Shown: one piece after another, positions 1 through 13,305 of the stretch
Layout: each line of letters starts with the position of its first letter
Position numbering within the stretch: position 1 is the first letter of the stretch
DNA from: a virus
Lineage: Duplodnaviria; Heunggongvirae; Uroviricota; Caudoviricetes
IMG/VR virus record: IMGVR_UViG_3300039368_000086
Location: 1-13,305 of that record
Direction: 5' to 3' (one strand)
DNA length: 13,305 nt
Notes under the pieces: generated by a model
Seen by the model: only the letters and a program-made list of their open reading frames with translations
What the model was told of the DNA's origin: nothing
The model's database searches: none
Translations under genes and position numbers: made by a program

Positions 1-252
1 CTGATAGAAACAGAAGCCACTGGAGCACCTCAAAAACACCATCATACACTAAATCAGTAAGTTGGCAGCATCACCGGCTGGCAGCAGTCGGCAGGTGCAA
101 GGGCTGAGCTGGCACTGGCGGAGAAACTGGGCCATGCGGTGATTTTTCAGGAGGTGGGCAGTGAATATTGACCCGGCGATAACGATTGATATGGCCCTGA
201 ACACCGGCCTGGCACTTCTTGGTTATTTCTACATCATGTTCTGCAGCGGACG

Positions 253-441
253 ATGGCTGTCACTGTTGTTCAAAAATGGAATAAACGCCGTAAGCAGGAG
301 CAACGCCAGAAGGCAATGGATGCATTTTTCGAAGCCTTCGGGATTGACAGCATGGAACCAGGGGATCCAGCTCGCGTAATTAGCAGAGGTGACGTTGTAA
401 TTCTTGTATACCGGAATGAAGAGAAAAATGAGCGAGATTAA
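253..441 (+). CDS. Hypothetical small basic/acidic phage protein (62 aa; alternative start at 320)
   Basis: ORF with protein-like charged composition; stop overlaps the start of the next gene by 14 nt. Start ambiguous; it competes with the GTG-initiated ORF 161..379 in another frame. Confidence 0.3.
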   Translation: MAVTVVQKWNKRRKQEQRQKAMDAFFEAFGIDSMEPGDPARVISRGDVVILVYRNEEKNERD

Positions 442-1051
442 CTATCAGGTACTGCGTGAAAAGGCAGAGAAAGCAACTAAAGGAAGCTACATCGTAGGGC
501 ATACATCTGTTAACCAACACGGCAATTTAACAGGAGTTTTTGTTTGTCAAAAATGGAAAGGAGAACCCGGTGGCGTGATTGCGGAACGTCATGTTAACTG
601 CCTGATTGAAACAGATGCTCAGGCTTATGCAAACGCTGAGTTCATAGCAGAGGCTAACCCGGCTACCGTGCTGGCACTGCTGGATGAACAGGAAAGAAAC
701 CAGCAATACATCAAACGCCGCGACCAGGAGAACGAGGATATTGCGCTTACGGTTGGGAAGCTGCTCGTTGAGCTTGAAGCAGCAAAATCAAAACTCAACG
801 AGCAGCGCGAGTATTACGAGGGAGTTATCTCTGATGGGTGCAAGCGTATTGCTGAACTGGAAGCGCGGGAAGTTCAATTACCGACTCGCTACGACCTTCG
901 ATATGGACACCCGATAAATGCAGATGAGCGACATGTCATGATACCTAAAGAAAATGGCAGTTGGCTTTACCTGATTGACCTGGAACACGCATTACGCGTC
1001 GCTGGCATTCGCATCAAAGGAGAGGAGCATGGAAATAAAACCAGAGGATGA
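428..1051 (+). CDS. Ead/Ea22-like phage accessory protein (coiled-coil)
   Basis: ATG at 428 gives N-terminus MSEINYQ...; central motif AEFIAEANPATVLALLDEQE and a coiled-coil tail resemble the lambdoid Ead/Ea22-like family (from memory, not searched). The upstream ATG at 404 is less likely. Confidence 0.55.
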   Translation: MSEINYQVLREKAEKATKGSYIVGHTSVNQHGNLTGVFVCQKWKGEPGGVIAERHVNCLIETDAQAYANAEFIAEANPATVLALLDEQERNQQYIKRRDQENEDIALTVGKLLVELEAAKSKLNEQREYYEGVISDGCKRIAELEAREVQLPTRYDLRYGHPINADERHVMIPKENGSWLYLIDLEHALRVAGIRIKGEEHGNKTRG

Positions 1052-1385
1052 GTTAAGCAATATCGTTTTATTTCCGGTAAAAGAGGATGACCCTCGTAAT
1101 CAGGTTAATTTTCTTTATGAGCCATCGGAAAGACCATATTGTCATCACGCCTCTGTCCGGGTTGACGAAAAAGAGCGTCAGGTCCGCTGTAAAATCTGCG
1201 GTGCAGTTGTGGAACCATTTGACTGGATGCTCTCTGTGGCGAAAAGAGAAACCAGACTGGCAGATGATGTAAGGCTCTTGCGTCAGGAGGAGCGGGAAAG
1301 GCGAAAAAATATAGAAAAGCTAATTCAGATTGAGCGTAACGCGAAAGCGCGGATACGCAGGGCGACAAAATCCAGAACTGAATAA
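1029..1385 (+). CDS. Hypothetical phage protein with putative zinc-ribbon (CHH...CKIC) and a basic C-terminal tail
   Basis: ATG at 1029 preceded by AAGGAGAGGAGC ribosome-binding site; overlaps the upstream gene by 23 nt (coupling); C-x-H-H ... C-x2-C motif; Arg/Lys-rich C-terminus. Confidence 0.55.
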   Translation: MEIKPEDELSNIVLFPVKEDDPRNQVNFLYEPSERPYCHHASVRVDEKERQVRCKICGAVVEPFDWMLSVAKRETRLADDVRLLRQEERERRKNIEKLIQIERNAKARIRRATKSRTE

Positions 1386-1478
1386 TTAAATTTAGCTCTG
1401 TTAAAAATTTAATCCTTAACCGGAGGGATTTCTGCACCCTCAGAACATCAGGAGGCCGCCCGAAAGGGCGGTAGTTAA

Positions 1479-1661
1479 ATGCGAAAGTTTAAAATAATTA
1501 TTGAAACGGGAATAGCCGGTGGAGATTTCGAGGATGAATTCGAAGTGGATGATGATGCGACGCCTGATGAAATACATGACGAAGCAAAAGATATTTTCTT
1601 TAACTACTGCAATTACTCATATCACGAAATAAAAGACGAAGAGGAAGAGCAAAATGGCTGA
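1479..1661 (+). CDS. Small highly acidic protein (60 aa, about one third Asp/Glu)
   Basis: ORF follows an AGGAGG (1450-1455) plus GAAA-tetraloop hairpin (1456-1471); 20 of 60 residues acidic by manual count. Confidence 0.5.
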   Translation: MRKFKIIIETGIAGGDFEDEFEVDDDATPDEIHDEAKDIFFNYCNYSYHEIKDEEEEQNG

Positions 1662-1830
1662 TTTTGGTTCAACTAAATACAACGTCAGTTTTGAAGCATG
1701 GCATGAACTGTTAATGGACTATGCAGAGTTACGTGGTGGCAGTGCTGCTGATGCTGAAGCATGGCGTGATGATTATGAAGCAGGAAAAACTCCGGTCGAA
1801 GCATATTGTGATGAGTGGGGCGATGAATGA
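1654..1830 (+). CDS. Small acidic protein (58 aa), not in the supplied ORF track (below length cutoff)
   Basis: ATG at 1654 with GAGGAAG 6 nt upstream; hand translation MADFGSTKYNVSFEAWHELLMDYAELRGGSAADAEAWRDDYEAGKTPVEAYCDEWGDE; 8-nt overlap with the upstream gene and ATGA overlap with the downstream gene. Confidence 0.5.
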   Translation: MADFGSTKYNVSFEAWHELLMDYAELRGGSAADAEAWRDDYEAGKTPVEAYCDEWGDE

Positions 1831-2141
1831 GCGAGATTAATTATCAGGAAGGGCATGAAACGGCAGGGCAGGCAAAACCAGTTGCATGGCGATATCGCTA
1901 CGTGAAAAAAGGCGTTACGGACTTTCAGGAGAATCTGTGGGTTGGTGACTGGAAATATGTACCGACAAAAGAGGATTGCAACGACAGGCCGAACTATGAA
2001 ATTCAGGCCTTATTCGCTGCCCCGCCAGTTCCGGTGACATCAGAAGAACTGGTTAAAGCTGTGCACTTTTATGAACAACTAAAACGCGAAAATCCACCAG
2101 CATCCGGAAACCTGATTACAGATTCCCAGATAAGGCAATGA
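1827..2141 (+). CDS. Hypothetical phage protein (104 aa) sharing the MSEINYQ N-terminus with the Ead/Ea22-like gene
   Basis: ATGA start/stop overlap with the upstream gene; first 21 nt are 20/21 identical to the gene start at 428. Confidence 0.55.
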   Translation: MSEINYQEGHETAGQAKPVAWRYRYVKKGVTDFQENLWVGDWKYVPTKEDCNDRPNYEIQALFAAPPVPVTSEELVKAVHFYEQLKRENPPASGNLITDSQIRQ

Positions 2142-2311
2142 GCTACCTGGCGCAGAACGGGCTGATAAGTATGGGGAATATTTTGCGATGAATATTTAGA
2201 CTAAAGAGTTTGTAACGCTATGTAAGTGATTTTTTCTGGTTTAGATATTTATATGTCCGGCCAAATTGAGGTGTGTTTAAATGTTATTGCACATTGATTG
2301 TAGGGGGAATA

Positions 2312-2491
2312 ATGAAAAACGCATTGCAGTTTTTGTTTGTTGCGTTCTGGTTGTTCGCATCATGTATGCCCATCATCTTCACAGCAAGGTATATGGAAAA
2401 AGTTGATGTTTTGATATTAATGTTTGGACATATAAATGCCCTTTTTTTAGGGGTGTTCATGGCGGTCATGTGCATTGAATACTGGCGGTAA
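2312..2491 (+). CDS. Small hydrophobic (membrane) protein, about 59 aa
   Basis: ATG at 2312 preceded by AGGGGGAA; sequence MKNALQFLFVAFWLFASCMPIIF... is predicted two-TM-like; an alternative GTG start at 2273 exists. Confidence 0.35.
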   Translation: MKNALQFLFVAFWLFASCMPIIFTARYMEKVDVLILMFGHINALFLGVFMAVMCIEYWR

Positions 2492-2750
2492 ATACAGCGA
2501 ACGCCATTGGTTTAGTTGGATATTTACTGTGCCGGACAAAAACGGTTTGCGGGGAAATCTTAGTTAAGTAGAATGACTGCGGGTGCTTGAGGCTATCTGT
2601 CTCAGGCATGAACACTGAAAGGCAGATAGAGAAAAGCCCCAGTTAACATTTCGCGTCCTGCAAGACGCTTAACATTAATCTGAGGCCCAATCTATGTCTC
2701 ACAAATGTAGGTTAGCCTCTTACGTGCCGAAAGGCAAGGGGAAGCAGGCT

Positions 2751-2906
2751 ATGAAGCAGCAAAAGGCGATGTTAATCGCCCTGATCGTCATCTGTTTAAC
2801 CGTCATTGTGACGGCACTGGTAACGAGGAAAGACCTCTGCGAGGTACGAATCCGAACCGGCCAGACGGAGGTCGCTGTCTTCACAGCTTACGAACCTGAG
2901 GAGTAA
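2751..2906 (+). CDS. hokD: Hok/Gef-family membrane toxin (HokD/RelF-like, 51 aa)
   Basis: Translation MKQQKAMLIALIVICLTVIVTALVTRKDLCEVRIRTGQTEVAVFTAYEPEE matches my recollection of HokD/RelF; an in-frame upstream extension (2694) of 70 codons has mok-like length; structured leader upstream and a 3' hairpin at 2914-2936. Confidence 0.85.
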   Translation: MKQQKAMLIALIVICLTVIVTALVTRKDLCEVRIRTGQTEVAVFTAYEPEE

Positions 2907-2975
2907 GAGACCCGGCGGGGGAGTAATCTCCCGCCACCTCTGATGTGCCAGGCATCCTCAACGCACCCGCACTTA

Positions 2976-2995
2976 ACCCGCTTCGGCGGGTTTTT
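2976..2995 (+). terminator. Rho-independent terminator (CCCGC-TTCG-GCGGG + T5)
   Basis: Perfect 5-bp GC stem with TTCG loop followed by TTTTT, seen directly in the sequence downstream of hok. Confidence 0.6.
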
Positions 2996-3007
2996 GCATT
3001 AGTCTGG

Positions 3008-3036
3008 TTGACAAAAATAGAAAAATGCGAAAATAT
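3008..3036 (+). promoter_or_regulatory. Candidate sigma70 promoter for the 3072-4806 cassette (TTGACA -35, 17-nt spacer, weak AAATAT -10)
   Basis: Consensus TTGACA at 3008-3013; the -10 matches only 3/6, so this is tentative. Confidence 0.3.
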
Positions 3037-3071
3037 GTGGTTTACGAATTCTAAAAAAAGCGAAACTTGAA

Positions 3072-3722
3072 ATGAATGAAAATCAGTTAGCTCCTTGTTG
3101 GGAATTTCAACCTTATCTTGCTGAAAACTATGTTCGCCACTTGTTGGCGGAGATCGCTAACGTACTTGAGCAGCTGTACTATCATAAGCACGCATTAGAC
3201 AGCAACTGGTCTGAAGGTGTAAGGGCTTATGATTGGGTCAGAAATCATCTTATTCAAAATGAAGATGCAATTCCTGGCCTTGAGATGATTTCCAAGGGGT
3301 TGGACTATGTAGTTGCTTTAAATAAAGTTCCGCTACAATTTACCAAAGATTGCATTAATAACCCCAAAAAGAAACATCGTCTGCGTCGAAATAAAGTAGA
3401 GTATGAGCAGCTCTCATTGTTTGGTGATGTTGAGGCTGAGCAAGATATTACATGGCGAGTCATAGCTGAGCCTTTTTTATCCGAAGAGGGCGATGGTGAA
3501 TTAGAGTCCACACTGCCTCGTTGGGAGGTAGCTCTTGTTGGATTTAATACTTATGGTGCTCAGATTAGTATAGTTTCTCATCAATCTACAGCATCGATGC
3601 CGCTTATGCCTCTTGATTATAACACACTCCCTGACGAAGCGGAGATTAATAAGGTGCCTCTTCGTCGGCGTACGAAGGATAAAGATTTGGATGTGAGCAG
3701 TGATGGAACATCAGGTGAATAA
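3072..3722 (+). CDS. Hypothetical protein (216 aa), upstream partner of the HTH-peptidase; no family recognised
   Basis: Long ORF in an AT-rich segment, translationally coupled (about 20-nt overlap) to the downstream gene; weak ribosome-binding site. Confidence 0.65.
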   Translation: MNENQLAPCWEFQPYLAENYVRHLLAEIANVLEQLYYHKHALDSNWSEGVRAYDWVRNHLIQNEDAIPGLEMISKGLDYVVALNKVPLQFTKDCINNPKKKHRLRRNKVEYEQLSLFGDVEAEQDITWRVIAEPFLSEEGDGELESTLPRWEVALVGFNTYGAQISIVSHQSTASMPLMPLDYNTLPDEAEINKVPLRRRTKDKDLDVSSDGTSGE

Positions 3723-4806
3723 CTTCACTGAGTATCGGGGTGATAAGCTCAAACTAGCGAGAATGGCTGTTGGGCTTTCTTGTGAAGAGTTAGCCGAAAA
3801 AATTGGCAAGACAAAGCAATTCGTTAGCAAACTGGAGAAGGGGTGCAGGCCATCGGAGCAATGTCTTGAGTTAATATCTTCAGCGCTTATGATTAAGTCC
3901 AGTTTTCTTTTTACTGAACGAAAATACGCTCTGGAAAGTGATGTCTGCCATTTTCGGAGTAAGAAGTCCAGGACTCAAACGCTGACTAATAGTGTATTGG
4001 CCAGGGCTGAGATTCTTAATATTATAATTTCTGCTGTTGAAGGTGAAATCGAATTTCCTGACGTTAACATACCGGAGCACCCAGGGGCTGAATTACTTAC
4101 TCCGAATGATATTGAGCGAGTGGCAGAAGATTGTCGCCGTGCCTGGAATTTAGGTCTTGGCCCTATATCATCAATGGTTAAATTGGCGGAGAGTTTAGGG
4201 GTAATCGTTGCGCATGTTACGGGAGTCGATGATCGTGTTGATGCTTTTACTGTTCACAATAACAGGCCTGTTATCATCAGGAACAATGTTAAAAAAAGCA
4301 TATGTAGATTTCGCTCTGATTTAGGTCATGAATTAGGGCATTTAGTAATGCATGAGGGCATAACGACAGGTGATAAACTTACGGAATCACAAGCCGATCA
4401 CTTTTCGAGCGCCTTATTAGTTCCCAGGTTATCTTTCATTAAAGAATTTCCACGAATACGAGGTAAGCAATTCGACTGGAATGCTCTGGTTGAATTTAAA
4501 CTTAGATGGAAAATCAGCCTTAAAATGTGTATTTATCGAGCCAGCGCATTAGGCTTATTGACCCAGGAACAGGCAAGAACTGGCTATATGCATCTTAATT
4601 CCAGAGGGTATACGAGAGTTGAACCTGGTGATGAACTTTTGCGCCCTGAAGAACCCGGCATGCTGGCCGAGGCGATTGAAATGCTGGATGATGCAACCTG
4701 GCTAAGAATTCTTATGAAAACTGGCTTGAGCCAAGATTTAATTCGTGAGTTGTTCTCCATCAACAGACCTATTACAAATCCAAGAAATATTTTCCAGATT
4801 GTTTGA
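3703..4806 (+). CDS. HTH_XRE DNA-binding domain fused to ImmA/IrrE-family (M78, COG2856) zinc metallopeptidase
   Basis: N-terminal helix-turn-helix signature (LKLARMAVGLSCEELAEKIGKTKQFVSKLEKG); HEXXH zinc-binding motif in DLGHELGHLVMHEG; 367 aa. Confidence 0.85.
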   Translation: MEHQVNNFTEYRGDKLKLARMAVGLSCEELAEKIGKTKQFVSKLEKGCRPSEQCLELISSALMIKSSFLFTERKYALESDVCHFRSKKSRTQTLTNSVLARAEILNIIISAVEGEIEFPDVNIPEHPGAELLTPNDIERVAEDCRRAWNLGLGPISSMVKLAESLGVIVAHVTGVDDRVDAFTVHNNRPVIIRNNVKKSICRFRSDLGHELGHLVMHEGITTGDKLTESQADHFSSALLVPRLSFIKEFPRIRGKQFDWNALVEFKLRWKISLKMCIYRASALGLLTQEQARTGYMHLNSRGYTRVEPGDELLRPEEPGMLAEAIEMLDDATWLRILMKTGLSQDLIRELFSINRPITNPRNIFQIV

Positions 4807-4810
4807 GTAT

Positions 4811-4831
4811 ACCCGCTTCGGCGGGTTTTTT
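4811..4831 (+). terminator. Rho-independent terminator, near-identical copy of the one at 2976-2995
   Basis: ACCCGCTTCGGCGGGTTTTTT; a 20-nt core is shared with the terminator after hok. Confidence 0.65.
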
Positions 4832-4850
4832 GTTTTTATTTTCAACGTGT

Positions 4851-4880
4851 TTGAAGTTTTGGACGGTGCCAGAATAGAAT
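4851..4880 (+). promoter_or_regulatory. Candidate sigma70 promoter (TTGAAG -35, 18-nt spacer, TAGAAT -10) upstream of 4916
   Basis: Motifs read directly; followed by strong ribosome-binding site GGGAGAAGAGGG and ATG 4916. Confidence 0.35.
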
Positions 4881-4915
4881 CAAAAATACTTAAGTAGCGC
4901 GCAGGGAGAAGAGGG

Positions 4916-5137
4916 ATGGACCCCGAACAGGGGGAGTGCTATTTATCTGGAAGGATTCTGTTGATGAAAATCGAAGAATTACGTGAAATTTTTAGTGAAG
5001 ATGGCCTCTATGCTGTGCGCGTTGAGAATGGGGGTATTACCTACACAGCGTTAATTCCTGATGATCATGTAGTGTTATCTGTTGAGGCATTCATTGAATA
5101 CTTGGAAAGACTCGGTTTCAAGGTAGTTCGGGAATAA
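4916..5137 (+). CDS. Hypothetical small protein (73 aa; alternative start 4966)
   Basis: Strong ribosome-binding site before 4916; no recognisable motif. Confidence 0.45.
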   Translation: MDPEQGECYLSGRILLMKIEELREIFSEDGLYAVRVENGGITYTALIPDDHVVLSVEAFIEYLERLGFKVVRE

Positions 5138-5196
5138 GTTATAATACGTGAGCCAGCCTGAACAACTGGCAACCTGCAGCGCCATTGGAGATGACA

Positions 5197-5469
5197 ATGG
5201 CGCATAATTTCAAATTTCGCAATTCTGATTCTGCCTTTGCCAGCAGGCACGGGTGGCGTTCTCACGCATTCAAATATGACTGGTATCAGCACGATCCCTG
5301 TACTGAAGAACAGGCCGAATGGCTGATTCATAACTACCGCAGACGTGGATATGAGTTTAGGAAAGCCCTCACCCTCGATTATCGTCACTGGATAATCTAC
5401 GTCAGACTCCCTTATTCCGAACGCCCACCGCGTCCGTCCCGCACATTCCAGCAACGCATCTGGAGGTAA
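5197..5469 (+). CDS. Hypothetical phage protein (90 aa)
   Basis: GGAG 6 nt upstream of ATG 5197; stop TAA is embedded in the ribosome-binding site of the DUF968 gene (coupling). Sits where Qin-type prophages carry the small gene preceding ydfU. Confidence 0.5.
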   Translation: MAHNFKFRNSDSAFASRHGWRSHAFKYDWYQHDPCTEEQAEWLIHNYRRRGYEFRKALTLDYRHWIIYVRLPYSERPPRPSRTFQQRIWR

Positions 5470-5470
5470 C

Positions 5471-6517
5471 GTGCGGGTATTACTTCGACCTGTTCTGGTA
5501 CCGGAACTCGGGCTGGTGATCGTTAAGCCGGGCCGTGAATCCATGCCGGTATTCCACAATACCCGGGTACTGGTGGAGCCGGAACCGAAAAGCATGCGTA
5601 ATCTGCCGTCCGGGGTCGTTCCTGCCGTTCGCCAGCCGCTGGCGGAGGATAAATCATTACTGCCATTTTTCAGCGACGAACGAGTGATTCGTGCTGCTGG
5701 TGGCGCTGGCGCATTGTCTGATTGGTTACTGCGCCATGTTAAATCCTGCCAGTGGCCACACGGCGATTATCACCACAGTGAAACCGTCATTCACCGTTAT
5801 GGTACCGGCGCAATGGTGTTGTGCTGGCACTGCGACAACCAGCTGCGCGACCAGACCTCCGAATCACTCGGGCAACTTGCTCACCAAAACCTGTCTGCAT
5901 GGATGATTGACGTCATACGCCATGCAATGAATGGCTCGCAGGAACGGGAATTATCGCTGGCTGAATTATCCTGGTGGGCGGTCCGCAATCAGGTGGCGGA
6001 CGCGCTACCGGAAGCGGTATTACGTCGTTCGCTGGGGTTGCGTGCGGAAAAAATCCGCTCAATGTACCGTGAAAGCGACATCGTACCGGGAGAGCAGACC
6101 GCCACCAGCATACTGAAGCAGCGCACAAAAAATCTTGCGCCGCTGCCTCACGCCCACCAGCAAAACCCGCCACAGGAAGAGACGGTGGTCAGCATTGCCG
6201 TTGATCCTGAGTCTCCGGAATCTTTCATGAAACGACCTAAACGTCGCCGCTGGGTTAACGAGAAATACACACGCTGGGTGAAGACACAGCCGTGTGCGTG
6301 TTGTGGTAAGCCAGCCGACGATCCCCATCACCTGATTGGTCATGGTCAGGGCGGAATGGGGACAAAATCTCACGATATTTTCACGCTACCGCTGTGTCGG
6401 GAGCATCACAACGAGCTTCATGCGGATCCTCTGGCGTTCGAAGAAAAGCATGGTTCTCAGGTTGATTTAATTTTTCGTTTTCTTGATCACGCCTTTGCAA
6501 CTGGCGTGCTTGGGTAA
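5471..6517 (+). CDS. DUF968-family (YdfU-like) phage protein with C-terminal HNH/zinc-finger-like motif
   Basis: GTG start with GGAGG ribosome-binding site; C-terminal CACCGK...DPHHLIGHGQGG...CREHHNELH motif; 348 aa, close to the size of Qin prophage YdfU; located just upstream of rusA/Q. Confidence 0.75.
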   Translation: MRVLLRPVLVPELGLVIVKPGRESMPVFHNTRVLVEPEPKSMRNLPSGVVPAVRQPLAEDKSLLPFFSDERVIRAAGGAGALSDWLLRHVKSCQWPHGDYHHSETVIHRYGTGAMVLCWHCDNQLRDQTSESLGQLAHQNLSAWMIDVIRHAMNGSQERELSLAELSWWAVRNQVADALPEAVLRRSLGLRAEKIRSMYRESDIVPGEQTATSILKQRTKNLAPLPHAHQQNPPQEETVVSIAVDPESPESFMKRPKRRRWVNEKYTRWVKTQPCACCGKPADDPHHLIGHGQGGMGTKSHDIFTLPLCREHHNELHADPLAFEEKHGSQVDLIFRFLDHAFATGVLG

Positions 6518-6529
6518 AAGAGGTGACTG

Positions 6530-6889
6530 ATGCTCATAGATTTGGTTTTACCTTACCCGCCGACGGTGAACACTTACTGGCGACGCCGTGGCAGCACATA
6601 TTTTATCTCGGAGGAGGGAAAGCGTTATCGCCGGGCTGTGGCGCTTATTGTTCGCCAGCAGCGGCTGAAATTAAGCCTGTCCGGAAGGCTGGCGATAAAG
6701 GTGATTGCAGAGCCACCGGATAAGCGCCGCCGCGACCTGGACAATATCCTGAAGGCACCACTGGATGCGCTGACGCATGCCGGACTACTTATAGACGACG
6801 AGCAGTTTGATGAAATCAATATTGTGCGCGGTCAGCTCGTTCCTGGTGGGCGGCTGGGGATAAAAATCACAGAACTGGAGTGCGCATGA
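6530..6889 (+). CDS. rusA: Crossover junction endodeoxyribonuclease RusA (Holliday junction resolvase)
   Basis: 119 aa; conserved PDKRRRDLDN and GGRLGIKITE motifs matching the RusA family; canonical position before Q. Confidence 0.9.
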   Translation: MLIDLVLPYPPTVNTYWRRRGSTYFISEEGKRYRRAVALIVRQQRLKLSLSGRLAIKVIAEPPDKRRRDLDNILKAPLDALTHAGLLIDDEQFDEINIVRGQLVPGGRLGIKITELECA

Positions 6890-7575
6890 ATAACCAGTAT
6901 TTACAGTTTGTGCGTGAGCAGCTCATTATCGCCACCGCTGATTTGAGTGGGGCAACAAAAGGTCAGCTTGAAGCCTGGCAGGAGAATGCCATGTTCGATA
7001 CAGGGCGTTACAGGCGTAAAAAAATCCGGTACCGCGATGAAGTGACCGGAAAAATGATAACGCGGGATAATCCACCAATCCCGGGAAAACAATCGCTGGC
7101 GAAGGGGACGTCAATTCCTCTGGTCAGTCAGGTTGCTTTTTCTACATCATCATGGCGGCGGGCTGTTTTGTCTCTTGAAGAACATCATAAAGCCTGGTTG
7201 TTGTGGTGTTACAGCGGAAATACTTGCTGGGAGTATCAGATCGCGATAACGCAGTGGGCATGGACAGAATTTAAGACTCACTCTGGTACCAGGAAAATTG
7301 CAGGGAAGACACAGGAACGCCTGAAAAAATTAATCTGGCTGGCTGCACAGGATGTCAGGAGATGGGTTATAGGACATGATATCTACCAGCAACAGGAGCT
7401 TGCCCGTCTGTGTGGGATTAAGCCTGACAACTGGAGCCACAATTATGTGAGCTACTGGCGTGAAATACTCGACATTTTTATGAACCTCGATACCGAATCT
7501 CTGATTTGCACTGTGAAAAGGAGATCTCAACAAAAAGCGGCATTTTTGCAGCGAGATATTGCAAAAGTCAATTAG
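6886..7575 (+). CDS. Late-gene antitermination protein Q (phage 21/82/Qin-type Q family)
   Basis: ATGA overlap with the rusA stop; 229 aa; immediately followed by a PR'-like promoter and a short-transcript terminator. Family assignment is mainly positional. Confidence 0.7.
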   Translation: MNNQYLQFVREQLIIATADLSGATKGQLEAWQENAMFDTGRYRRKKIRYRDEVTGKMITRDNPPIPGKQSLAKGTSIPLVSQVAFSTSSWRRAVLSLEEHHKAWLLWCYSGNTCWEYQIAITQWAWTEFKTHSGTRKIAGKTQERLKKLIWLAAQDVRRWVIGHDIYQQQELARLCGIKPDNWSHNYVSYWREILDIFMNLDTESLICTVKRRSQQKAAFLQRDIAKVN

Positions 7576-7587
7576 ATAGCATATATT
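7559..7587 (+). promoter_or_regulatory. Candidate late promoter PR' (TTGCAA -35, 17-nt spacer, TATATT -10) overlapping the 3' end of Q
   Basis: Motifs read directly; predicted start near 7594 would give a roughly 55-nt RNA ending at tR'. Confidence 0.35.
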
Positions 7588-7623
7588 TTATGTAAATGTG
7601 ATATATTGCTGTAAAGTGTATAA

Positions 7624-7648
7624 ACCCGCTCAAATGTGCGGGTTTTTT
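7624..7648 (+). terminator. tR'-like rho-independent terminator (CCCGC ... GCGGG + T6)
   Basis: 5-bp GC stem, 8-nt loop, TTTTTT tract; position right after Q. Confidence 0.6.
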
Positions 7649-7721
7649 GCTTAACTCTGTGGACCTTTTTATCTGTAGTTGTAATATATGGATATTGTTA
7701 CAATTTAGGTCGGTGAGCTTA

Positions 7722-8486
7722 ATGGAAGAACAGCACGGTAATTACTTTATAAAACGAATTCAGTTGATTGGAAGAGGGGCATTTGGCTTTGTTGAACACG
7801 TTAAGGTTTACAACCTCAATAAAGGTGAATGCGGGGATTATGCTAGAAAGGTTTTAGCACCCGAAAAACCAGAGCTTTTGGCGCAAATAGAGCAGTTTAG
7901 AAGGCGTTTTAAAAGGGAGGTTGTGTATCAATCACATTGCGTACATAGCAATATTGTTCCTATTTATTTGTGCGATTTGTTTGTTGAGAATCCATGGTTC
8001 ATTATGGATAAAGCAGAATGTGATCTTGAGCACGAAATAACGAACAACCTTCTTACAACAGATCAAAAAATTTCAATAGTGAAAATGGTATTAGATGGTG
8101 TAGCTTACATCCATGCCAAAGGCTATTTACACAGAGATATAAAACCCTTTAATGTTTTGCGATTTAGCGACGGAACATACAAGGTGTCTGATTTTGGTCT
8201 GGTAAAAGATACGAATCCCGAAGGGGATACCACTAAATTGACCGAGATCGGTACCCGTATGGGAAGTACAAGATATATGGCTCCCGAGATTTTATATAAT
8301 GCAGAGTATTCAGTTAAGACTGATGTTTATGCTGTGGGACGGTTAATTGAAGACTTAAATTTAGATGATAAAAAAATAAAGCCTATCATAGCTAAGTGCA
8401 CAAGGATGGATAAAGATGATAGATATCAGACAATAGATGATGTGGCGTTTGATTTTGCGCATTCTTTTTTAAGGAGTGAGTCATGA
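7722..8486 (+). CDS. Hanks-type (eukaryotic-like) Ser/Thr protein kinase, minimal kinase domain only (254 aa)
   Basis: Full motif set: glycine loop IGRGAFGFV, ARK lysine, catalytic loop HRDIKPFN, DFG (VSDFGLVK), APE (YMAPE), DVYAVG; GGTGAG ribosome-binding site before ATG 7722. Confidence 0.85.
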   Translation: MEEQHGNYFIKRIQLIGRGAFGFVEHVKVYNLNKGECGDYARKVLAPEKPELLAQIEQFRRRFKREVVYQSHCVHSNIVPIYLCDLFVENPWFIMDKAECDLEHEITNNLLTTDQKISIVKMVLDGVAYIHAKGYLHRDIKPFNVLRFSDGTYKVSDFGLVKDTNPEGDTTKLTEIGTRMGSTRYMAPEILYNAEYSVKTDVYAVGRLIEDLNLDDKKIKPIIAKCTRMDKDDRYQTIDDVAFDFAHSFLRSES

Positions 8487-9226
8487 TTCAGCTGATAGCG
8501 ACTTCATCATTCTCGTATCCAAAAGAACCAGGTAGGGTCAACGAAGATTCATTGCTTCCTCCAAAAATTGTAGGAGACGGCATCTTATTTGCCGTAGCTG
8601 ATGGTGTAGGTTCATACTCTGGTGCCAGTTATGCTTCATCCATGGCAATCGCTGAACTTTCAGCATTGACAAGTTTATCTTTTGATGCAGTTCCGAATGT
8701 ATTTGCTGAAGTTAAGCGAAAAGTTATGTCGTTAGCTGAAGTTAATGATGAGTTCGATAAAGCTGCTACTACACTTACCTTTTGTTATGTTTGTGATAGC
8801 GGAATTATTATTGGTCATATTGGTGATTGTCGCTTGTATTGCATTGGAGAAAAGAAAGCATATCAATTGACGAAGGACGATACCAGACATCAGATGTTAA
8901 TTGATCAGAATATTTTTAAACCCAGAGATTTGAAGAATAAACCGGGAAAAAATATCTTAACGACTGCCATAGCCTCAAATGTTGATATGGAATACGACTG
9001 TGATTTTATCCCGTGGAAAGATTTGCCTGGTATTAACGGGTTGTATCATCTGTGTATCATGTCTGATGGAGTTCATAACGTTTGGGAAAAACGCCCCAGA
9101 TTTACATCAAATACTATGAGTAATAGTCAGAAGTTTTCTAATGGTATTTTGCGTCGTATAGAGAGAGCCGGACCTGATGATGACTTTTCTTTAGTAAGTA
9201 TAATGGTGCGTGTGACGTCAGATTAG
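8483..9226 (+). CDS. PP2C-family (PPM) Ser/Thr protein phosphatase (247 aa)
   Basis: Motifs RVNEDS, FAVADGVGS, IGDCRLY, MSDGVHN, GPDDDFSLV; AAGGAG ribosome-binding site; ATGA overlap with the kinase stop (translational coupling). Confidence 0.8.
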   Translation: MIQLIATSSFSYPKEPGRVNEDSLLPPKIVGDGILFAVADGVGSYSGASYASSMAIAELSALTSLSFDAVPNVFAEVKRKVMSLAEVNDEFDKAATTLTFCYVCDSGIIIGHIGDCRLYCIGEKKAYQLTKDDTRHQMLIDQNIFKPRDLKNKPGKNILTTAIASNVDMEYDCDFIPWKDLPGINGLYHLCIMSDGVHNVWEKRPRFTSNTMSNSQKFSNGILRRIERAGPDDDFSLVSIMVRVTSD

Positions 9227-9295
9227 TTGTATAAACCCAGTAGGGAATGCTAATTTCCCATACTACAGAGTAAAGAAAAACTTAATTTTAATGTG

Positions 9296-9322
9296 AAAAG
9301 GCTGCTATCAGGCGGCCTTTTT
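9296..9322 (+). terminator. Rho-independent terminator after the kinase/phosphatase cassette
   Basis: AAAAGGCTGC-TATCAG-GCGGCCTTTTT: 6-bp stem with one G-U pair, flanked by A4 and T5. Confidence 0.5.
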
Positions 9323-9336
9323 ATGTCTGAAAAGCT

Positions 9337-9663
9337 GTGCAGTACGTTAAACACGCTTGTGGTTGTGAATGCCGACTGCGGCGGTATTTTGGCGTGACAG
9401 CGCAGGTGCCGTATACCGATGTCTGGACGCATAAACCGGTGCAGTTCTATCCCGGGAAACATCCGTGCGAAAAACCGGCAGAAATGCTGCAGCAGATAAT
9501 CAGCGCAAGCAGTCGTCCGGGAGACCTGGTTGCAGATTTTTTTATGGGCTCAGGTTCAACGGTAAAAGCGGCACTGGCGCTCGGGCGTCGTGCGATTGGC
9601 GTTGAACTGGAGACCGGACGTTTTGAGCAGACAGTCAGGGAAGTTCAGGATTTAATCGTTTGA
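9337..9663 (+). pseudogene. C-terminal fragment of an N6-adenine/N4-cytosine DNA methyltransferase (5'-truncated)
   Basis: Contains HPCEKP (H-P-x-x-K-P) and the FFMGSGST AdoMet-binding motif, but no DPPY catalytic motif and only a GTG start abutting a terminator. Confidence 0.55.
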
Positions 9664-9712
9664 AACGGATGAGATTGCAGAATTAATTACGCACCATTAT
9701 TATTCTGCTTCC

Positions 9713-9788
9713 GGCCCTTTAGCTCAGTGGTGAGAGCGAGCGACTCATAATCGCCAGGTCGCTGGTTCAAATCCAGCAAGGGCCACCA
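9713..9788 (+). tRNA. ileZ: tRNA-Ile2 (anticodon CAU, lysidine type; ileZ-like)
   Basis: Hand-folded cloverleaf: acceptor GGCCCTT/AAGGGCC, D-stem GCTC/GAGC, anticodon loop CTCATAA, T-arm GCTGG-TTCAAAT-CCAGC, 3' ACCA; close to E. coli ileX. Confidence 0.8.
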
Positions 9789-9795
9789 TCACATA

Positions 9796-9872
9796 CCGCC
9801 ATTAGCTCATCAGGAAAGAGCGCCAGCCTTCGAAGCTGGTTGCGCGGAGTTCGGGTCCCCGAAGGCGGTCCA
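9796..9872 (+). tRNA. argN: tRNA-Arg-like (anticodon UCG as read; argN-like) with one mismatch each in acceptor and T stems
   Basis: Anticodon stem CCAGC/GCTGG with loop CTTCGAA; T-loop TTCGGGT; 3' TCCA; imperfect stems make functionality uncertain. Confidence 0.55.
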
Positions 9873-9885
9873 TTATCTGTATCCT

Positions 9886-9962
9886 GCGTTGTTAGCTCAG
9901 CCGGACAGAGCAATTGCCTTCTAAGCAATCGGTCACTGGTTCGAATCCAGTACAACGCGCCA
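9886..9962 (+). tRNA. argO: tRNA-Arg (anticodon UCU, reads AGA; argO/argU-like)
   Basis: Acceptor GCGTTGT/ACAACGC, anticodon loop CTTCTAA, T-arm ACTGG-TTCGAAT-CCAGT, 3' GCCA. Confidence 0.85.
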
Positions 9963-9977
9963 CACTTATTTTCCCTG

Positions 9978-10001
9978 GCTCGCTTTTGCGGGCTTTTTTT
10001 T
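9978..10001 (+). terminator. Rho-independent terminator ending the tRNA cluster (GCTCGC-TTTT-GCGGGC + T8)
   Basis: Read directly from the sequence. Confidence 0.55.
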
Positions 10002-10196
10002 AAATGTCTCACAATTCAGGCGGTTGACTGTTGTCTGGTTTGCGGGGAGTTTGTTAAAAGAAACTGGCATGGTGAATCCCCCTGTGCGGAGGGGCAATCA
10101 GCGAGTAGGTATATGGGATAATCGCGGATTCAGGTGTTGGTACTGAATTCACCGGGAGGCACCCGGCACCATGCAATGGCACATAGCGCCACTCTC

Positions 10197-10226
10197 CAGC
10201 CCCTCTCCGGAGGGGCTGTTTATATT
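10197..10226 (+). terminator. Rho-independent terminator-like hairpin (CAGCCCCTC-TCCG-GAGGGGCTG followed by T-rich tract)
   Basis: 9-bp perfect stem; the T-tract is interrupted (TTTATATTGATTTT). Confidence 0.45.
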
Positions 10227-10249
10227 GATTTTGTCAGATGTGAGTAAAC

Positions 10250-10283
10250 TCCTTATGGACTTTGTTGTTTTAGTCCATAAGGA
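10250..10283. repeat. Perfect 12-bp inverted repeat (TCCTTATGGACT ... AGTCCATAAGGA) with 10-nt loop
   Basis: Every base pair checked by hand; no U-tract on either strand; overlaps the stop codon of the minus-strand ORF. Confidence 0.7.
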
Positions 10284-10588
10284 CATATTTGCAGAGTGCA
10301 ACGGTTATTAAAGCATTCATTCAATACGTTATCTGTATTTGTAGGGCATTCCTGGCTGTTTTTGATTAAATTCCAGAATGTTTTATTGAATGGTACTACG
10401 TTGTAAATGGTTACAGGTAGCACTTTGTTATTGAGCATGATACCTGTGTGAGTCAGTGTAAATATACTTTCAGGAGGTAAGAAAGCATCCGATTGATACC
10501 AGATTATTAATTTTACTTTACTCCATATGACTGAAAAAGATATTCCGCATGATGGCTGGATAACTGTATCAATCACAATCCACTTCAT
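10253..10588 (-). CDS. Hypothetical Cys/Trp-rich protein (111 aa) in an AT-rich segment; only minus-strand gene candidate in the window
   Basis: ORF with AGGAA 7 nt upstream of its ATG on the minus strand; AT-rich (foreign-looking) context; no recognised motif; could be spurious. Confidence 0.3.
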
Positions 10589-10848
10589 TTAGTTTCCTTG
10601 TTTATGCCTTGCTGGTGATGTTCTGAAAAGTATAAATGATATTTTTGAATGTAAACCATAGAGCAGAATTATTTTTATGATGTTGTTTATTGTTTATTTA
10701 AATGCAGGGTGGTTTATATCTCGTCTTGTAGTTTATCCATGCATATCTGCTTGATAATCAAGTTTTTATTTAAGGTATGGTTTTGTGTTTTTTCTGTATT
10801 ACATGTCAGGTATTTTAAAGAATTATTTTTCAGATGGTGGAAAGAACC

Positions 10849-11037
10849 ATGGCATTTAAACACTATGATGTTGTCAGGGCGGCGGCGCCGTCAGATCTTG
10901 CGGAAAAGCTGACACATAAACTGAAAGAGGGCTGGCAGCCGTTTGGTAGTCCGGTGGCCATAACCCCTTATACCCTGATGCAGGCGATTGCAGCAGAAGG
11001 TGATGTGGTGGTCAGTGGTGCAACTGAGCCGGAGTGA
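10849..11037 (+). CDS. Small conserved-looking late-region protein (62 aa; alternative start 10834)
   Basis: ORF with GGTGG/GAAAGA upstream; located just before the lysis cassette, where lambdoid prophages often carry a small conserved gene. Confidence 0.45.
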   Translation: MAFKHYDVVRAAAPSDLAEKLTHKLKEGWQPFGSPVAITPYTLMQAIAAEGDVVVSGATEPE

Positions 11038-11280
11038 TACTACGTCATCGTACTGGCCCGGCATTCCAGGCCATAAAAGACGGTCTGGCAGTGGGACTAA
11101 ATGCACTGACGCTGACGGATATTACCAAAAATGCAACGTATGGCGTTGAGATAGAAAGTCTGGTGCTGGAGATAAATGCACCGGCATCATCATAAAAAGT
11201 GAGCCAGTCAAATGGAAGGTATCGTTAAACTCACCGGTAGTGTCAGTGGGTCGTCTGAGACGCCTGCATGAGTTATCAGA

Positions 11281-11310
11281 GCCATCAGTACTTAACTGGT
11301 GGCTTTTTTA
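11281..11310 (+). terminator. Terminator-like hairpin upstream of the holin (GCCATCAG-TACTTAA-CTGGTGGC + TTTTTTATT)
   Basis: 8-bp stem with one G-U pair followed by a T-tract. Confidence 0.4.
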
Positions 11311-11344
11311 TTGTTGTCAGCTTCCGGATAACGGGAGACGGGGT

Positions 11345-11560
11345 ATGTACCAGATGGAAAAAATCACAACAGGTGTGTCATACACCACGTCAGCGGTGGG
11401 AACGGGCTACTGGTTCCTGCAGTTGCTGGACAGGGTTTCCCCGTCTCAGTGGGCGGCAATAGGCGTGCTGGGGAGTCTGCTGTTTGGGCTGCTGACATAT
11501 CTGACTAACCTGTATTTCAAAATCAAAGAGGACCGGCGTAAGGCGGCGCGGGGAGAGTAA
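11345..11560 (+). CDS. Phage-21-type class II holin (pinholin, S21/EssD family) with dual-start motif (MYQM)
   Basis: Translation ...[51 protein letters not shown] matches S21/EssD as I recall them; GGGAGACGGGG ribosome-binding site. Confidence 0.85.
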
Positions 11561-11564
11561 AGTG

Positions 11565-12455
11565 ATGAATAAAAAATATGAACTGGTTGTTAAGGGGATA
11601 AATAATTACGGGGATAAGGTTACTGTTACTGTGAAGCCGGAAGGTGACGGGCAAGCGTCGCTGTTGTTGCCAGATGTGGCGATTAGTCTTGACCGTACTG
11701 AAGGTGCCACGCTGGAGTTTTACGAAGCTGAGGCGAAAAAGCAGGCGAAGCAGTTTTTCATGGATGTTGCTGCCGGGTTATGTGAAGGGGATGGTCCGTT
11801 GCCGGAAAAGCGCCCCGTAATTTTAGAGGCGCAGGATGTGTTGATAACCTACAAAGGAAAGCTACCGGGAAGAATTACTTGTTCTCTGAAGATGCCGCCG
11901 TCAACACTGCGGTCAGAAAAAGATGATGTTGAATCACGTATTGAAAAACTGGAGAGCTACGTCGTTGAGCTGAATAAGAAATGGTCGATATTGGTGCCTT
12001 CTGGCGATGAAAAGCAGTTTGCTGCGTTTGACGATTATTGTCGGAAAGTGATGAGCAGAAATCTCGCAGAGTGTTTCAGTATTCATAATGATAATTTCAG
12101 TGACCCGGAATGGGAGTGTAACCGGCCATCCTTTGTTGTATCCGGTGATGCTGGGAAAATAACCATCTCAGAAAATGGGAAAGTAACACCTCCATCGCAC
12201 CAGCACAGTGAGGAGCTCATTGAATTTGCCATTGATTACCTGAAGAACAATAAAAAGCAGGGGCTGATGAAGCGCGTTGGCCGTTGCATGGGATATCTGC
12301 AGGTAGCTGCTGAGATTGAAGCGCTGGCCAGTGGTGCTGATAAGGATGCAATTGTGCGGGAGGCTCTTCTTCGTGATTTTAATACTCCACCCTTTAAAAA
12401 AGTGCCGGCTTACTGGCTTCATCCGGGGCTGACTTATCTTAAAGTGCGTATTTAG
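11565..12455 (+). CDS. Hypothetical protein (296 aa) inserted between holin and endolysin; no family recognised
   Basis: ATG at 11565 lies 7 nt after GGGAGAG, which overlaps the holin stop; long ORF with protein-like composition; no signal peptide or TM segment seen. Confidence 0.7.
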   Translation: MNKKYELVVKGINNYGDKVTVTVKPEGDGQASLLLPDVAISLDRTEGATLEFYEAEAKKQAKQFFMDVAAGLCEGDGPLPEKRPVILEAQDVLITYKGKLPGRITCSLKMPPSTLRSEKDDVESRIEKLESYVVELNKKWSILVPSGDEKQFAAFDDYCRKVMSRNLAECFSIHNDNFSDPEWECNRPSFVVSGDAGKITISENGKVTPPSHQHSEELIEFAIDYLKNNKKQGLMKRVGRCMGYLQVAAEIEALASGADKDAIVREALLRDFNTPPFKKVPAYWLHPGLTYLKVRI

Positions 12456-12491
12456 TGGGCCAGGGACAGCGGCTGAATATTTAATATATCC

Positions 12492-13025
12492 ATGAACACC
12501 AAAATCAAATACGGCCTGTCGGCTGCCGTTCTGGCGCTGATTGCCGCTGGTGCGCCTGCGCCTGACATTCTCGACCAGTTTCTGGATGAAAAGGAAGGCA
12601 AGCACACCACAGCATACCGTGATGGTGCGGGTATCTGGACCATCTGCCGAGGTGCCATCATGGTGGATGGTAAGCCTGTGATTCCTGGCATGAAGCTGTC
12701 GAAGGAAAAATGCGACTGGGTTAACACTATCGAACGGGATAAGGCGCTGGCGTGGGTGGAGAAAAACATCAGAGTGCCACTGACCGAACCCCAGAAAGCG
12801 GGGATCGCGTCATTCTGTCCGTACAACATTGGTCCCGGTAAGTGTTTCCCGTCGACGTTTTACAGACGAATTAATGCTGGTGATCGAAAAGGTGCCTGCG
12901 AAGCGATTCGCTGGTGGATTAAGGACGGTGGCAGAGACTGCCGTATTCGTTCAAACAACTGTTACGGTCAAGTATCCCGTCGTGACCAGGAGAGCGCGCT
13001 GGCGTGCTGGGGTATCGACAGATAA
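12492..13025 (+). CDS. SAR-endolysin (phage-21 R-type lysozyme, T4-lysozyme/GH24 fold)
   Basis: N-terminal signal-arrest-release-like segment GLSAAVLALIAAGAPAP; catalytic-region pattern E...D...T (EKEGKHTTAYRDGAGIWTICRG) similar to R21/P1 Lyz. Confidence 0.8.
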   Translation: MNTKIKYGLSAAVLALIAAGAPAPDILDQFLDEKEGKHTTAYRDGAGIWTICRGAIMVDGKPVIPGMKLSKEKCDWVNTIERDKALAWVEKNIRVPLTEPQKAGIASFCPYNIGPGKCFPSTFYRRINAGDRKGACEAIRWWIKDGGRDCRIRSNNCYGQVSRRDQESALACWGIDR

Positions 13026-13181
13026 GCAGAATATTTTGCTGAAAAATGAGGAATGGCCACGCGGGCGGATAACACGAAATCCTGCGAACTGGCGAAACGT
13101 AAGTGAATAAAAGTAAAAACCCCGTTTGTTGGCACCAAGCGAGGTTTTGTGTTTCTGACCTTGAGTAAGGCAAGGGAGAAC

Positions 13182-13305
13182 ATGGCGAAGTATAAACGAA
13201 TTCTGTTGAGGTTGACTATGAAAAATGTGAACCGCCCCGGGTTTCCTGGAGAGTATTTTATCTGTGAACTCAGGCTGCCAGATCATCGTTTCCGATGGAA
13301 GCATA
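13182..13305 (+). CDS. 5' part of an unknown ORF running off the window end (MAKYKRILLRLTMKNVNRPGFPGEYF...)
   Basis: AAGGGAGA ribosome-binding site 4 nt upstream of ATG 13182; open to the window end; not Rz-like. Confidence 0.35.
   Translation, partial: MAKYKRILLRLTMKNVNRPGFPGEYFICELRLPDHRFRWKH

Follow-up and report, generated by a model that had tools for sequence, protein, structure and literature searches.

A probable RosmerTA-type toxin-antitoxin module of the Vmi480/Vmi470 subtype, inserted between terminators in a lambdoid prophage

The virus record IMGVR_UViG_3300039368_000086 (Caudoviricetes), whose positions 1 to 13,305 were analysed here and are called the window, contains a two-gene cassette located between hokD and the DUF968-RusA-Q genes of a lambdoid prophage. 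With high probability this cassette is a moron carried by the prophage, namely a toxin-antitoxin and anti-phage module of the RosmerTA type that belongs to the Vmi480/Vmi470 subtype. RosmerTA consists of the two genes RmrT and RmrA and is a verified defence system from E. coli OLC-716; a construct of it with deleted rmrA could not be transformed into cells (Millman et al., 10.1101/2022.05.11.491447). A preliminary description of the cassette had regarded the 216 amino acid protein encoded by the first gene, and the pair as a whole, as unrecognised, which did not hold, since both genes are picked up by RosmerTA models and Vmi480/Vmi470, to which the pair is homologous, was already characterised in 2015. 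Its suggestion that the upstream protein could be an effector or toxin under control of the downstream protein is supported by the homology to the Vmi pair.

The downstream protein, RmrA, had been described as a helix-turn-helix (HTH) domain fused to an M78 peptidase with an intact HEXXH motif, and the domain searches agree with this. Pfam assigns residues 17-63 to HTH_3 and residues 177-282 to Peptidase_M78, and the zinc motif HELGH is complete (H209-E-L-G-H213, numbered from the ATG). The HTH spans about residues 14-72, and the C-terminal ~85 amino acids are without annotation. Pfam found no domain in the 216 amino acid RmrT. In the PADLOC search, RmrT matched PDLC03929 (E 4.6e-25, profile positions 5-195 of 198) and RmrA matched PDLC03943 (E 6.2e-105); in PHROGs they correspond to phrog_5786 (E 8e-85) and phrog_2439, respectively. 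The arrangement by which RosmerTA is recognised, a fused Xre HTH-M78 protein with intact HEXXH and an adjacent co-oriented gene matching an RmrT model, is found here. The second open reading frame could start at 3700 or 3703; the RefSeq annotation of identical DNA (WP_001004956.1 and WP_000401168.1 for the two proteins) uses the ATG at 3703, with which the two genes overlap by 20 nucleotides.

The link to an experimentally characterised toxin comes from the Vibrio pair. Vmi480, encoded on the mobilisable genomic island MGIVmi1 of Vibrio mimicus VM573, kills E. coli when it is expressed by itself. The downstream Vmi470, an HTH-Zn-peptidase of 362 amino acids, neutralises it, and vmi470 was not deletable on its own (Luo et al. 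2015, PMC4671572). When a profile built from RmrT and its near homologues was searched against 1.84 billion representative proteins, 69 clusters emerged, with nearly all members about 200 amino acids long, and PDLC03929 was matched by all 65 aligned family members. Named sources were Vibrio, Aeromonas, Pseudomonas, Xenorhabdus, Serratia, Enterobacter and marine Gammaproteobacteria. One cluster member, P0183, bears the locus tag VMD_06480, together with accessions from Vibrio mimicus and V. anguillarum, and is therefore Vmi480. RmrT is 26% identical to Vmi480 over 176 amino acids (BLASTP, E 1e-15), the two align with a probability of 97.9% in hhalign, and both match the same PADLOC model, PDLC03929.

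The partner genes tell the same story. At the locus of P0160, the representative of the 90% cluster that holds Vmi480, a gene for 198 amino acids is followed after a 5-nucleotide gap by one for 362 amino acids, exactly as published for Vmi480/Vmi470. With this 362 amino acid partner RmrA shares 47% identity (E 3e-124), and we infer from its locus that the partner is a near-identical Vmi470. Compared with the Vibrio pair, the antitoxin is thus far better conserved than the toxin (47% versus 26% identity). PDLC03943 is also the best model for the Vmi470-type, Xenorhabdus and metagenomic partner proteins, and in all seven family loci inspected the toxin gene is followed by an HTH_3 plus Peptidase_M78 gene (359-377 amino acids), with an overlap or a 5-nucleotide gap. 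By sequence comparison, the 216 amino acid protein belongs to a toxin family for which toxicity and neutralisation by an HTH-peptidase have been proven experimentally, and not to a housekeeping or structural family. The window pair shares with Vmi480/Vmi470 the toxin family, the antitoxin subfamily, the position of the toxin gene in front and the tight linkage of the genes. It differs in the length of the toxin (216 versus 198 amino acids), in the 20-nucleotide overlap instead of the 5-nucleotide gap, and in its location in a lambdoid prophage instead of a mobilisable genomic island.

A natural mutant fits this picture. In strain FDAARGOS_1249 (L008, 1698-2754), an insertion sequence of the IS5 family splits rmrT after about codon 41 and leaves rmrA intact; the element is flanked by a 9-bp target duplication equivalent to 3188-3196 of the window. 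This natural toxin knockout is consistent with a toxin/antitoxin polarity in which RmrT is the toxic and RmrA the neutralising partner, a polarity that for the window cassette is supported by its homologues.

The cassette is bracketed by duplicated terminators (Table 1). The 20-mer ACCCGCTTCGGCGGGTTTTT is present in exactly two copies in the window, with a start-to-start distance of 1835 nucleotides. Allowing up to three mismatches still gave just these two matches, and 200 shuffles gave none, confirming the earlier observation that identical terminator cores enclose two coupled genes. Both copies comprise a G+C-rich hairpin and a T-run and score as intrinsic-terminator-like. Between them lie the hexamer TTGACA and two open reading frames on the plus strand. 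For the -10 element there are two candidates, AAATAT at 3031-3036 with a 17-nucleotide spacer and TGcGAAAAT at 3026-3034 with a 15-nucleotide spacer. Of the cassette's own signals, the terminator is clear and retained in diverged E. coli copies; the -10 is weak, though conserved among the copies. The candidate promoter is covered by two tandem units, which are alike at 20 of 31 positions (manual count) and could be operators bound by the HTH of RmrA; the Xenorhabdus copy has them in the same arrangement. A motif scan of the cassette's promoter region turned up nothing resembling a LexA box. A perfect CTGT-N8-ACAG (LexA-box-like core, CTGTTCACAATAACAG) is located inside the rmrA coding sequence, and the count of such sites across the window is not above chance. 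The cassette had also been called AT-rich, which is correct to a slight degree (41.5% G+C versus 45.7% for the whole window); the difference is marginal, and the adjoining nin-region DNA is comparably AT-rich.

Table 1. Positions of the cassette features and of neighbouring features in the window.
Feature	Positions	Strand	Description
sok RNA	2581-2756		Rfam match, 120 bits
hokD	2751-2906		
left terminator copy	2976-2995	+	hokD intrinsic terminator; single copy in the empty-site prophages L002 and L003
cassette-only DNA	2996-4810	+	with one terminator copy, the 1835-bp insertion
tandem ~31-nucleotide units GGTTnAC-N14-GCGAAA	3006-3036, 3039-3069	+	over the promoter; candidate operators
candidate sigma-70 promoter	3008-3036	+	-35 TTGACA at 3008-3013; putative function
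rmrT	3072-3722	+	216 amino acid toxin by homology; Vmi480 / PADLOC PDLC03929 family
rmrA	3703-4806	+	367 amino acid antitoxin by homology; Xre HTH, M78/ImmA-IrrE Zn-peptidase and C-terminal region
CTGT-N8-ACAG site	4250-4265		inside rmrA
right terminator copy	4811-4830	+	closes the cassette; exact repeat of the left copy
Q antiterminator gene	6880-7575		
Ser/Thr protein kinase gene	7647-8486		Pkinase, E 2e-33
PP2C phosphatase gene	8483-9226		
tRNA cluster	9713-9962		Met-CAT, Arg-TCG, Arg-TCT
STnc100	10038-10227		Rfam match, 132 bits

The gene order around the cassette is hokD/sok, cassette, small open reading frames, DUF968 (ydfU-like), RusA and Q. The preliminary description had seen here a hokD-ydfU-Q order interrupted by a moron, and comparison with other prophages bears this out. 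An empty-site model, in which a single terminator joins the left flank to the right one, aligned as one unbroken piece in 61 genomes. In the junction alignment with two of these empty sites (L002 and L003), the left flank is homologous through the terminator and diverges after it, and on the right side homology resumes exactly at the terminator. The window thus holds 1835 extra bases bounded by the duplicated terminator, and the terminator similarity coincides with an insertion boundary. As judged from these alignments, the 1835-bp unit is a moron-type insertion with a sharp junction, which relatives that are collinear in other respects lack. In their flanks, even the best empty sites reach only about 96% identity, so that they could be ancestral or could be products of deletion between the direct repeats.

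Of 5426 complete E. coli genomes, 237 carry the cassette (3000-4805), among them 042 and ABU 83972, and in 224 the identity is at least 99%. The search of other prophages also revealed diverged copies, which occupy different contexts in the nin region; like the empty sites, these contexts support the reading as a self-contained, mobile moron. The copy in KFu019 (L010, 2977-4830) is 94% identical and also follows hokD but has a different downstream flank. The copy in KL53 (L009, 3001-4840) is 80% identical, has no hokD upstream and adjoins DinI and DUF1367, and a Xenorhabdus prophage carries a copy with 53% protein identity between KilA-N/ANT and DUF1367. Close alignment over representative genomes found the cassette in E. 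albertii and Xenorhabdus only. The RmrT encoded on the Escherichia albertii contig is 100% identical to that of the window. In the part of the supplementary tables of Millman et al. that was consulted, strains 042, ABU 83972 and ML35 are not listed.

These copies also shed light on the origin of the terminator repeat. KFu019 and KL53 have their own terminators of the form ACCCGC-loop-GCGGGTTTT, with the same stem but with the loops TACG and TATAT, respectively, versus TTCG in the window. Retention of the stem with different loops indicates that the terminator belongs to the cassette and travels with it in the E. coli copies; in the Xenorhabdus copy, no such hairpin was found in the short aligned stretch downstream of rmrA. 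That the two copies match exactly in the window is most likely the result of recombination of the cassette terminator with the near-identical hokD terminator, and the repeat does not look like a target duplication of the transposition type.

If the cassette works like its relatives, rmrT and rmrA would be co-transcribed from the cassette promoter, and transcription would end at the cassette terminator. RmrT, by homology to Vmi480, would be a growth-arresting toxin and RmrA would neutralise it, with the HTH of RmrA probably autoregulating the operon. By analogy to other RosmerTA systems, the M78 peptidase domain might serve as a switch or sensor, and ClpXP might help to restrain the toxin. In E. 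coli E101, S. pneumoniae and Pectobacteriaceae, cells that carry RosmerTA-type modules are reported to depend on clpP or clpX (10.1101/2020.05.25.114553, 10.64898/2025.12.09.693261). Infection by another phage might then upset the balance and free RmrT, so that the infection would be aborted and the lysogen population protected, by analogy to the RosmerTA systems of OLC-716 and of the Gordonia phage Kita.

The verified system from OLC-716 resembles the window cassette in that its RmrA combines an HTH with a Zn-peptidase and in that both are two-gene operons with the toxin gene first. The RmrT models differ (PDLC03935 for OLC-716, PDLC03929 for the window), and the window cassette therefore represents a different RmrT subtype within RosmerTA. 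Several points weigh against the proposed explanation. The RmrT of OLC-716 has no detectable similarity to that of the window, and its RmrA is 29% identical (E 2e-35). Since the RosmerTA verified in E. coli is this distant, the anti-phage activity of the Vmi480/Vmi470 subtype is an extrapolation by analogy. Vmi480/Vmi470 itself has been established as a toxin-antitoxin pair and not as a defence system (PMC4671572). The case for the cassette in the window is built from sequence comparison. The peptidase in this family could act by self-cleavage, by cleavage of the toxin or as a sensor. The promoter proposed at 3008 is confirmed in part: TTGACA is a perfect -35 and the block around it is kept in the alignment of the KFu019, KL53 and Xenorhabdus copies, but the -10 is poor and the candidate remained below the threshold of the consensus scan. 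Finally, no DNA match to the cassette was found among the sequenced phages in INPHARED, so that it is known only from prophages.

It might also be possible that the cassette is a pure addiction or stabilisation module, which retains the prophage in its lineage and has no anti-phage role. Vmi480/Vmi470 resides on a mobilisable genomic island and has been characterised only as a toxin-antitoxin pair (PMC4671572), and the cassette directly follows hokD/sok, which is itself an addiction-type module. In addition, a relative in E. coli E101 came to light through the essentiality of clpP and not through defence: for the prophage-borne E101_02645 and E101_02644, the reported identities are 33% with Vmi480 and 42% with Vmi470, and the pair makes clpP essential (Rousset et al. 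2021 preprint). Judged by the published description, they probably belong to the same family as the window pair, from which they differ in their RefSeq accessions (WP_001179380.1 and WP_000481765.1). However, two RosmerTA systems with other toxins protect against phages, and the cassette occupies a moron position in the nin region, and a few kb downstream of it there is a kinase/phosphatase pair of a type associated with the exclusion of phages. Addiction and anti-phage roles can, moreover, coexist, and we consider an exclusive addiction function unlikely.

A reversed polarity, in which the HTH-peptidase is toxic and the 216 amino acid protein neutralises it, would have a precedent in PD-lambda-2, where the Xre-peptidase alone is toxic and is rescued by an upstream HigB-like protein (PMC9519451). 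PD-lambda-2 (Vassallo et al. 2022) and the RmrTA of phage Kita (Ernits et al. 2023) are demonstrated anti-phage systems, and in both, as in the window cassette, a toxin-like gene precedes the gene for an Xre-peptidase fusion. However, the upstream protein of PD-lambda-2 is a different one and a third gene is present, whereas in the Vmi pair the toxin is encoded by the upstream gene and the HTH-peptidase does no harm on its own. The strain with broken rmrT and intact rmrA likewise speaks against reversal, which makes this polarity very improbable. The toxin of Kita depolarises membranes and has transmembrane segments, whereas the helices of the window RmrT are short in the predicted structure (see below).

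The HTH and M78 domain families are also common to the switches ImmR/ImmA of ICEBs1, DdrO/IrrE of Deinococcus and CapH/CapP of the cyclic-oligonucleotide-based anti-phage signalling system (CBASS). In these split switches the HTH protein is the presumed target of the peptidase. A switch of this type, controlling prophage induction or a DNA-damage regulon without any toxin, is extremely improbable here: PADLOC does report weak CapP (1.6e-14) and CapH (1.5e-4) matches, but the RmrA models outscore CapP by 90 orders of magnitude, the two domains are fused instead of being encoded by two genes and have a toxin partner, the cassette is distant from the immunity and integrase regions, its neighbours are hokD and DUF968/RusA/Q with no CBASS operon or radiation regulon nearby, and the promoter region is free of LexA-box-like sites. 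The last point also leaves the DNA-damage responsiveness proposed earlier without support. A split ImmR/ImmA- or CapH/CapP-type arrangement was rejected on the same grounds, as the domains are fused and neither an integrase/excision module nor a CBASS operon adjoins them. The HTH-peptidase was likewise ruled out as the prophage repressor, because the immunity genes are located elsewhere in the prophage; in E. coli 042, the immunity genes, which are cI/cro-like, are found some 7.5 kb upstream of the cassette, ahead of the replication genes. A cleavage mechanism like that of ImmR/ImmA has already been put forward for fused HTH-peptidases (Ernits et al. 2023).

Turning to RmrT itself, a first AlphaFold model based on 13 close homologues was too weak for use, with a predicted local distance difference test score (pLDDT) of 62. 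The model obtained from the 65-sequence alignment is confident, with a pLDDT of 83.3 and a predicted template modelling score of 0.73. In it, two long helices lead into a sheet region of six strands, and the C-terminal tail is disordered; according to DSSP, the longest helix has 20 residues and there are six strands. Searching the RmrT sequence against the PDB gave noise only (E at least 0.18), and Foldseek found no significant match of the model in the PDB (best E 0.078; NaeI at rank 7 with probability 0.2). We looked for the D...(D/E)xK motif of PD-(D/E)xK nucleases in beta-2 and beta-3 of RmrT and found it not to be conserved: D78 is kept in only 43% of the family, and beta-3 is without a conserved acidic residue. 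The conserved polar residues of the family are D43, R51, Y53, E110, Q113, R129 and E133. One might tentatively suppose that the RmrT/Vmi480 family is a highly diverged nuclease of the restriction-endonuclease fold (PD-(D/E)xK-like) with relocated catalytic residues (D43, E110, E133, R129), a notion that we regard as doubtful. If true, it would be the first biochemical activity for the RosmerTA toxin class of RmrT/Vmi480.

Further genes of interest surround the cassette. The sok antitoxin RNA is located directly upstream of hokD and overlaps it, showing that the RosmerTA cassette was inserted immediately after another toxin-antitoxin module. Downstream of Q, a eukaryote-like Ser/Thr protein kinase is encoded, and the gene for a PP2C phosphatase overlaps the kinase gene; the two form a second moron-like pair. 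The kinase presumably resembles the Stk kinase of phage 933W, which excludes HK97. The late-region leader contains a cluster of three tRNA genes followed by the small RNA STnc100. In the complete E. coli genomes, at most 72% of the whole window is matched in one place; the window prophage is a mosaic without a whole counterpart in the complete-genome set.

What kind of system this is, how it is built and what it probably does have been published, and the cassette is in this respect an ordinary find with little that is new; because these are already in print, it raises no new question. What is gained is an annotation: the pair that RefSeq lists as 'hypothetical protein' and 'helix-turn-helix domain-containing protein' can be named as a RosmerTA (Vmi480/Vmi470-type) pair in 237 genomes. 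In addition, the Vibrio toxin that is in use as a counter-selection marker is now tied to a defined RmrT subfamily. Clean insertion boundaries have been obtained for a prophage defence moron, and the identical terminators at these boundaries may be the mark of terminator-to-terminator recombination that moves defence morons between lambdoid phages.

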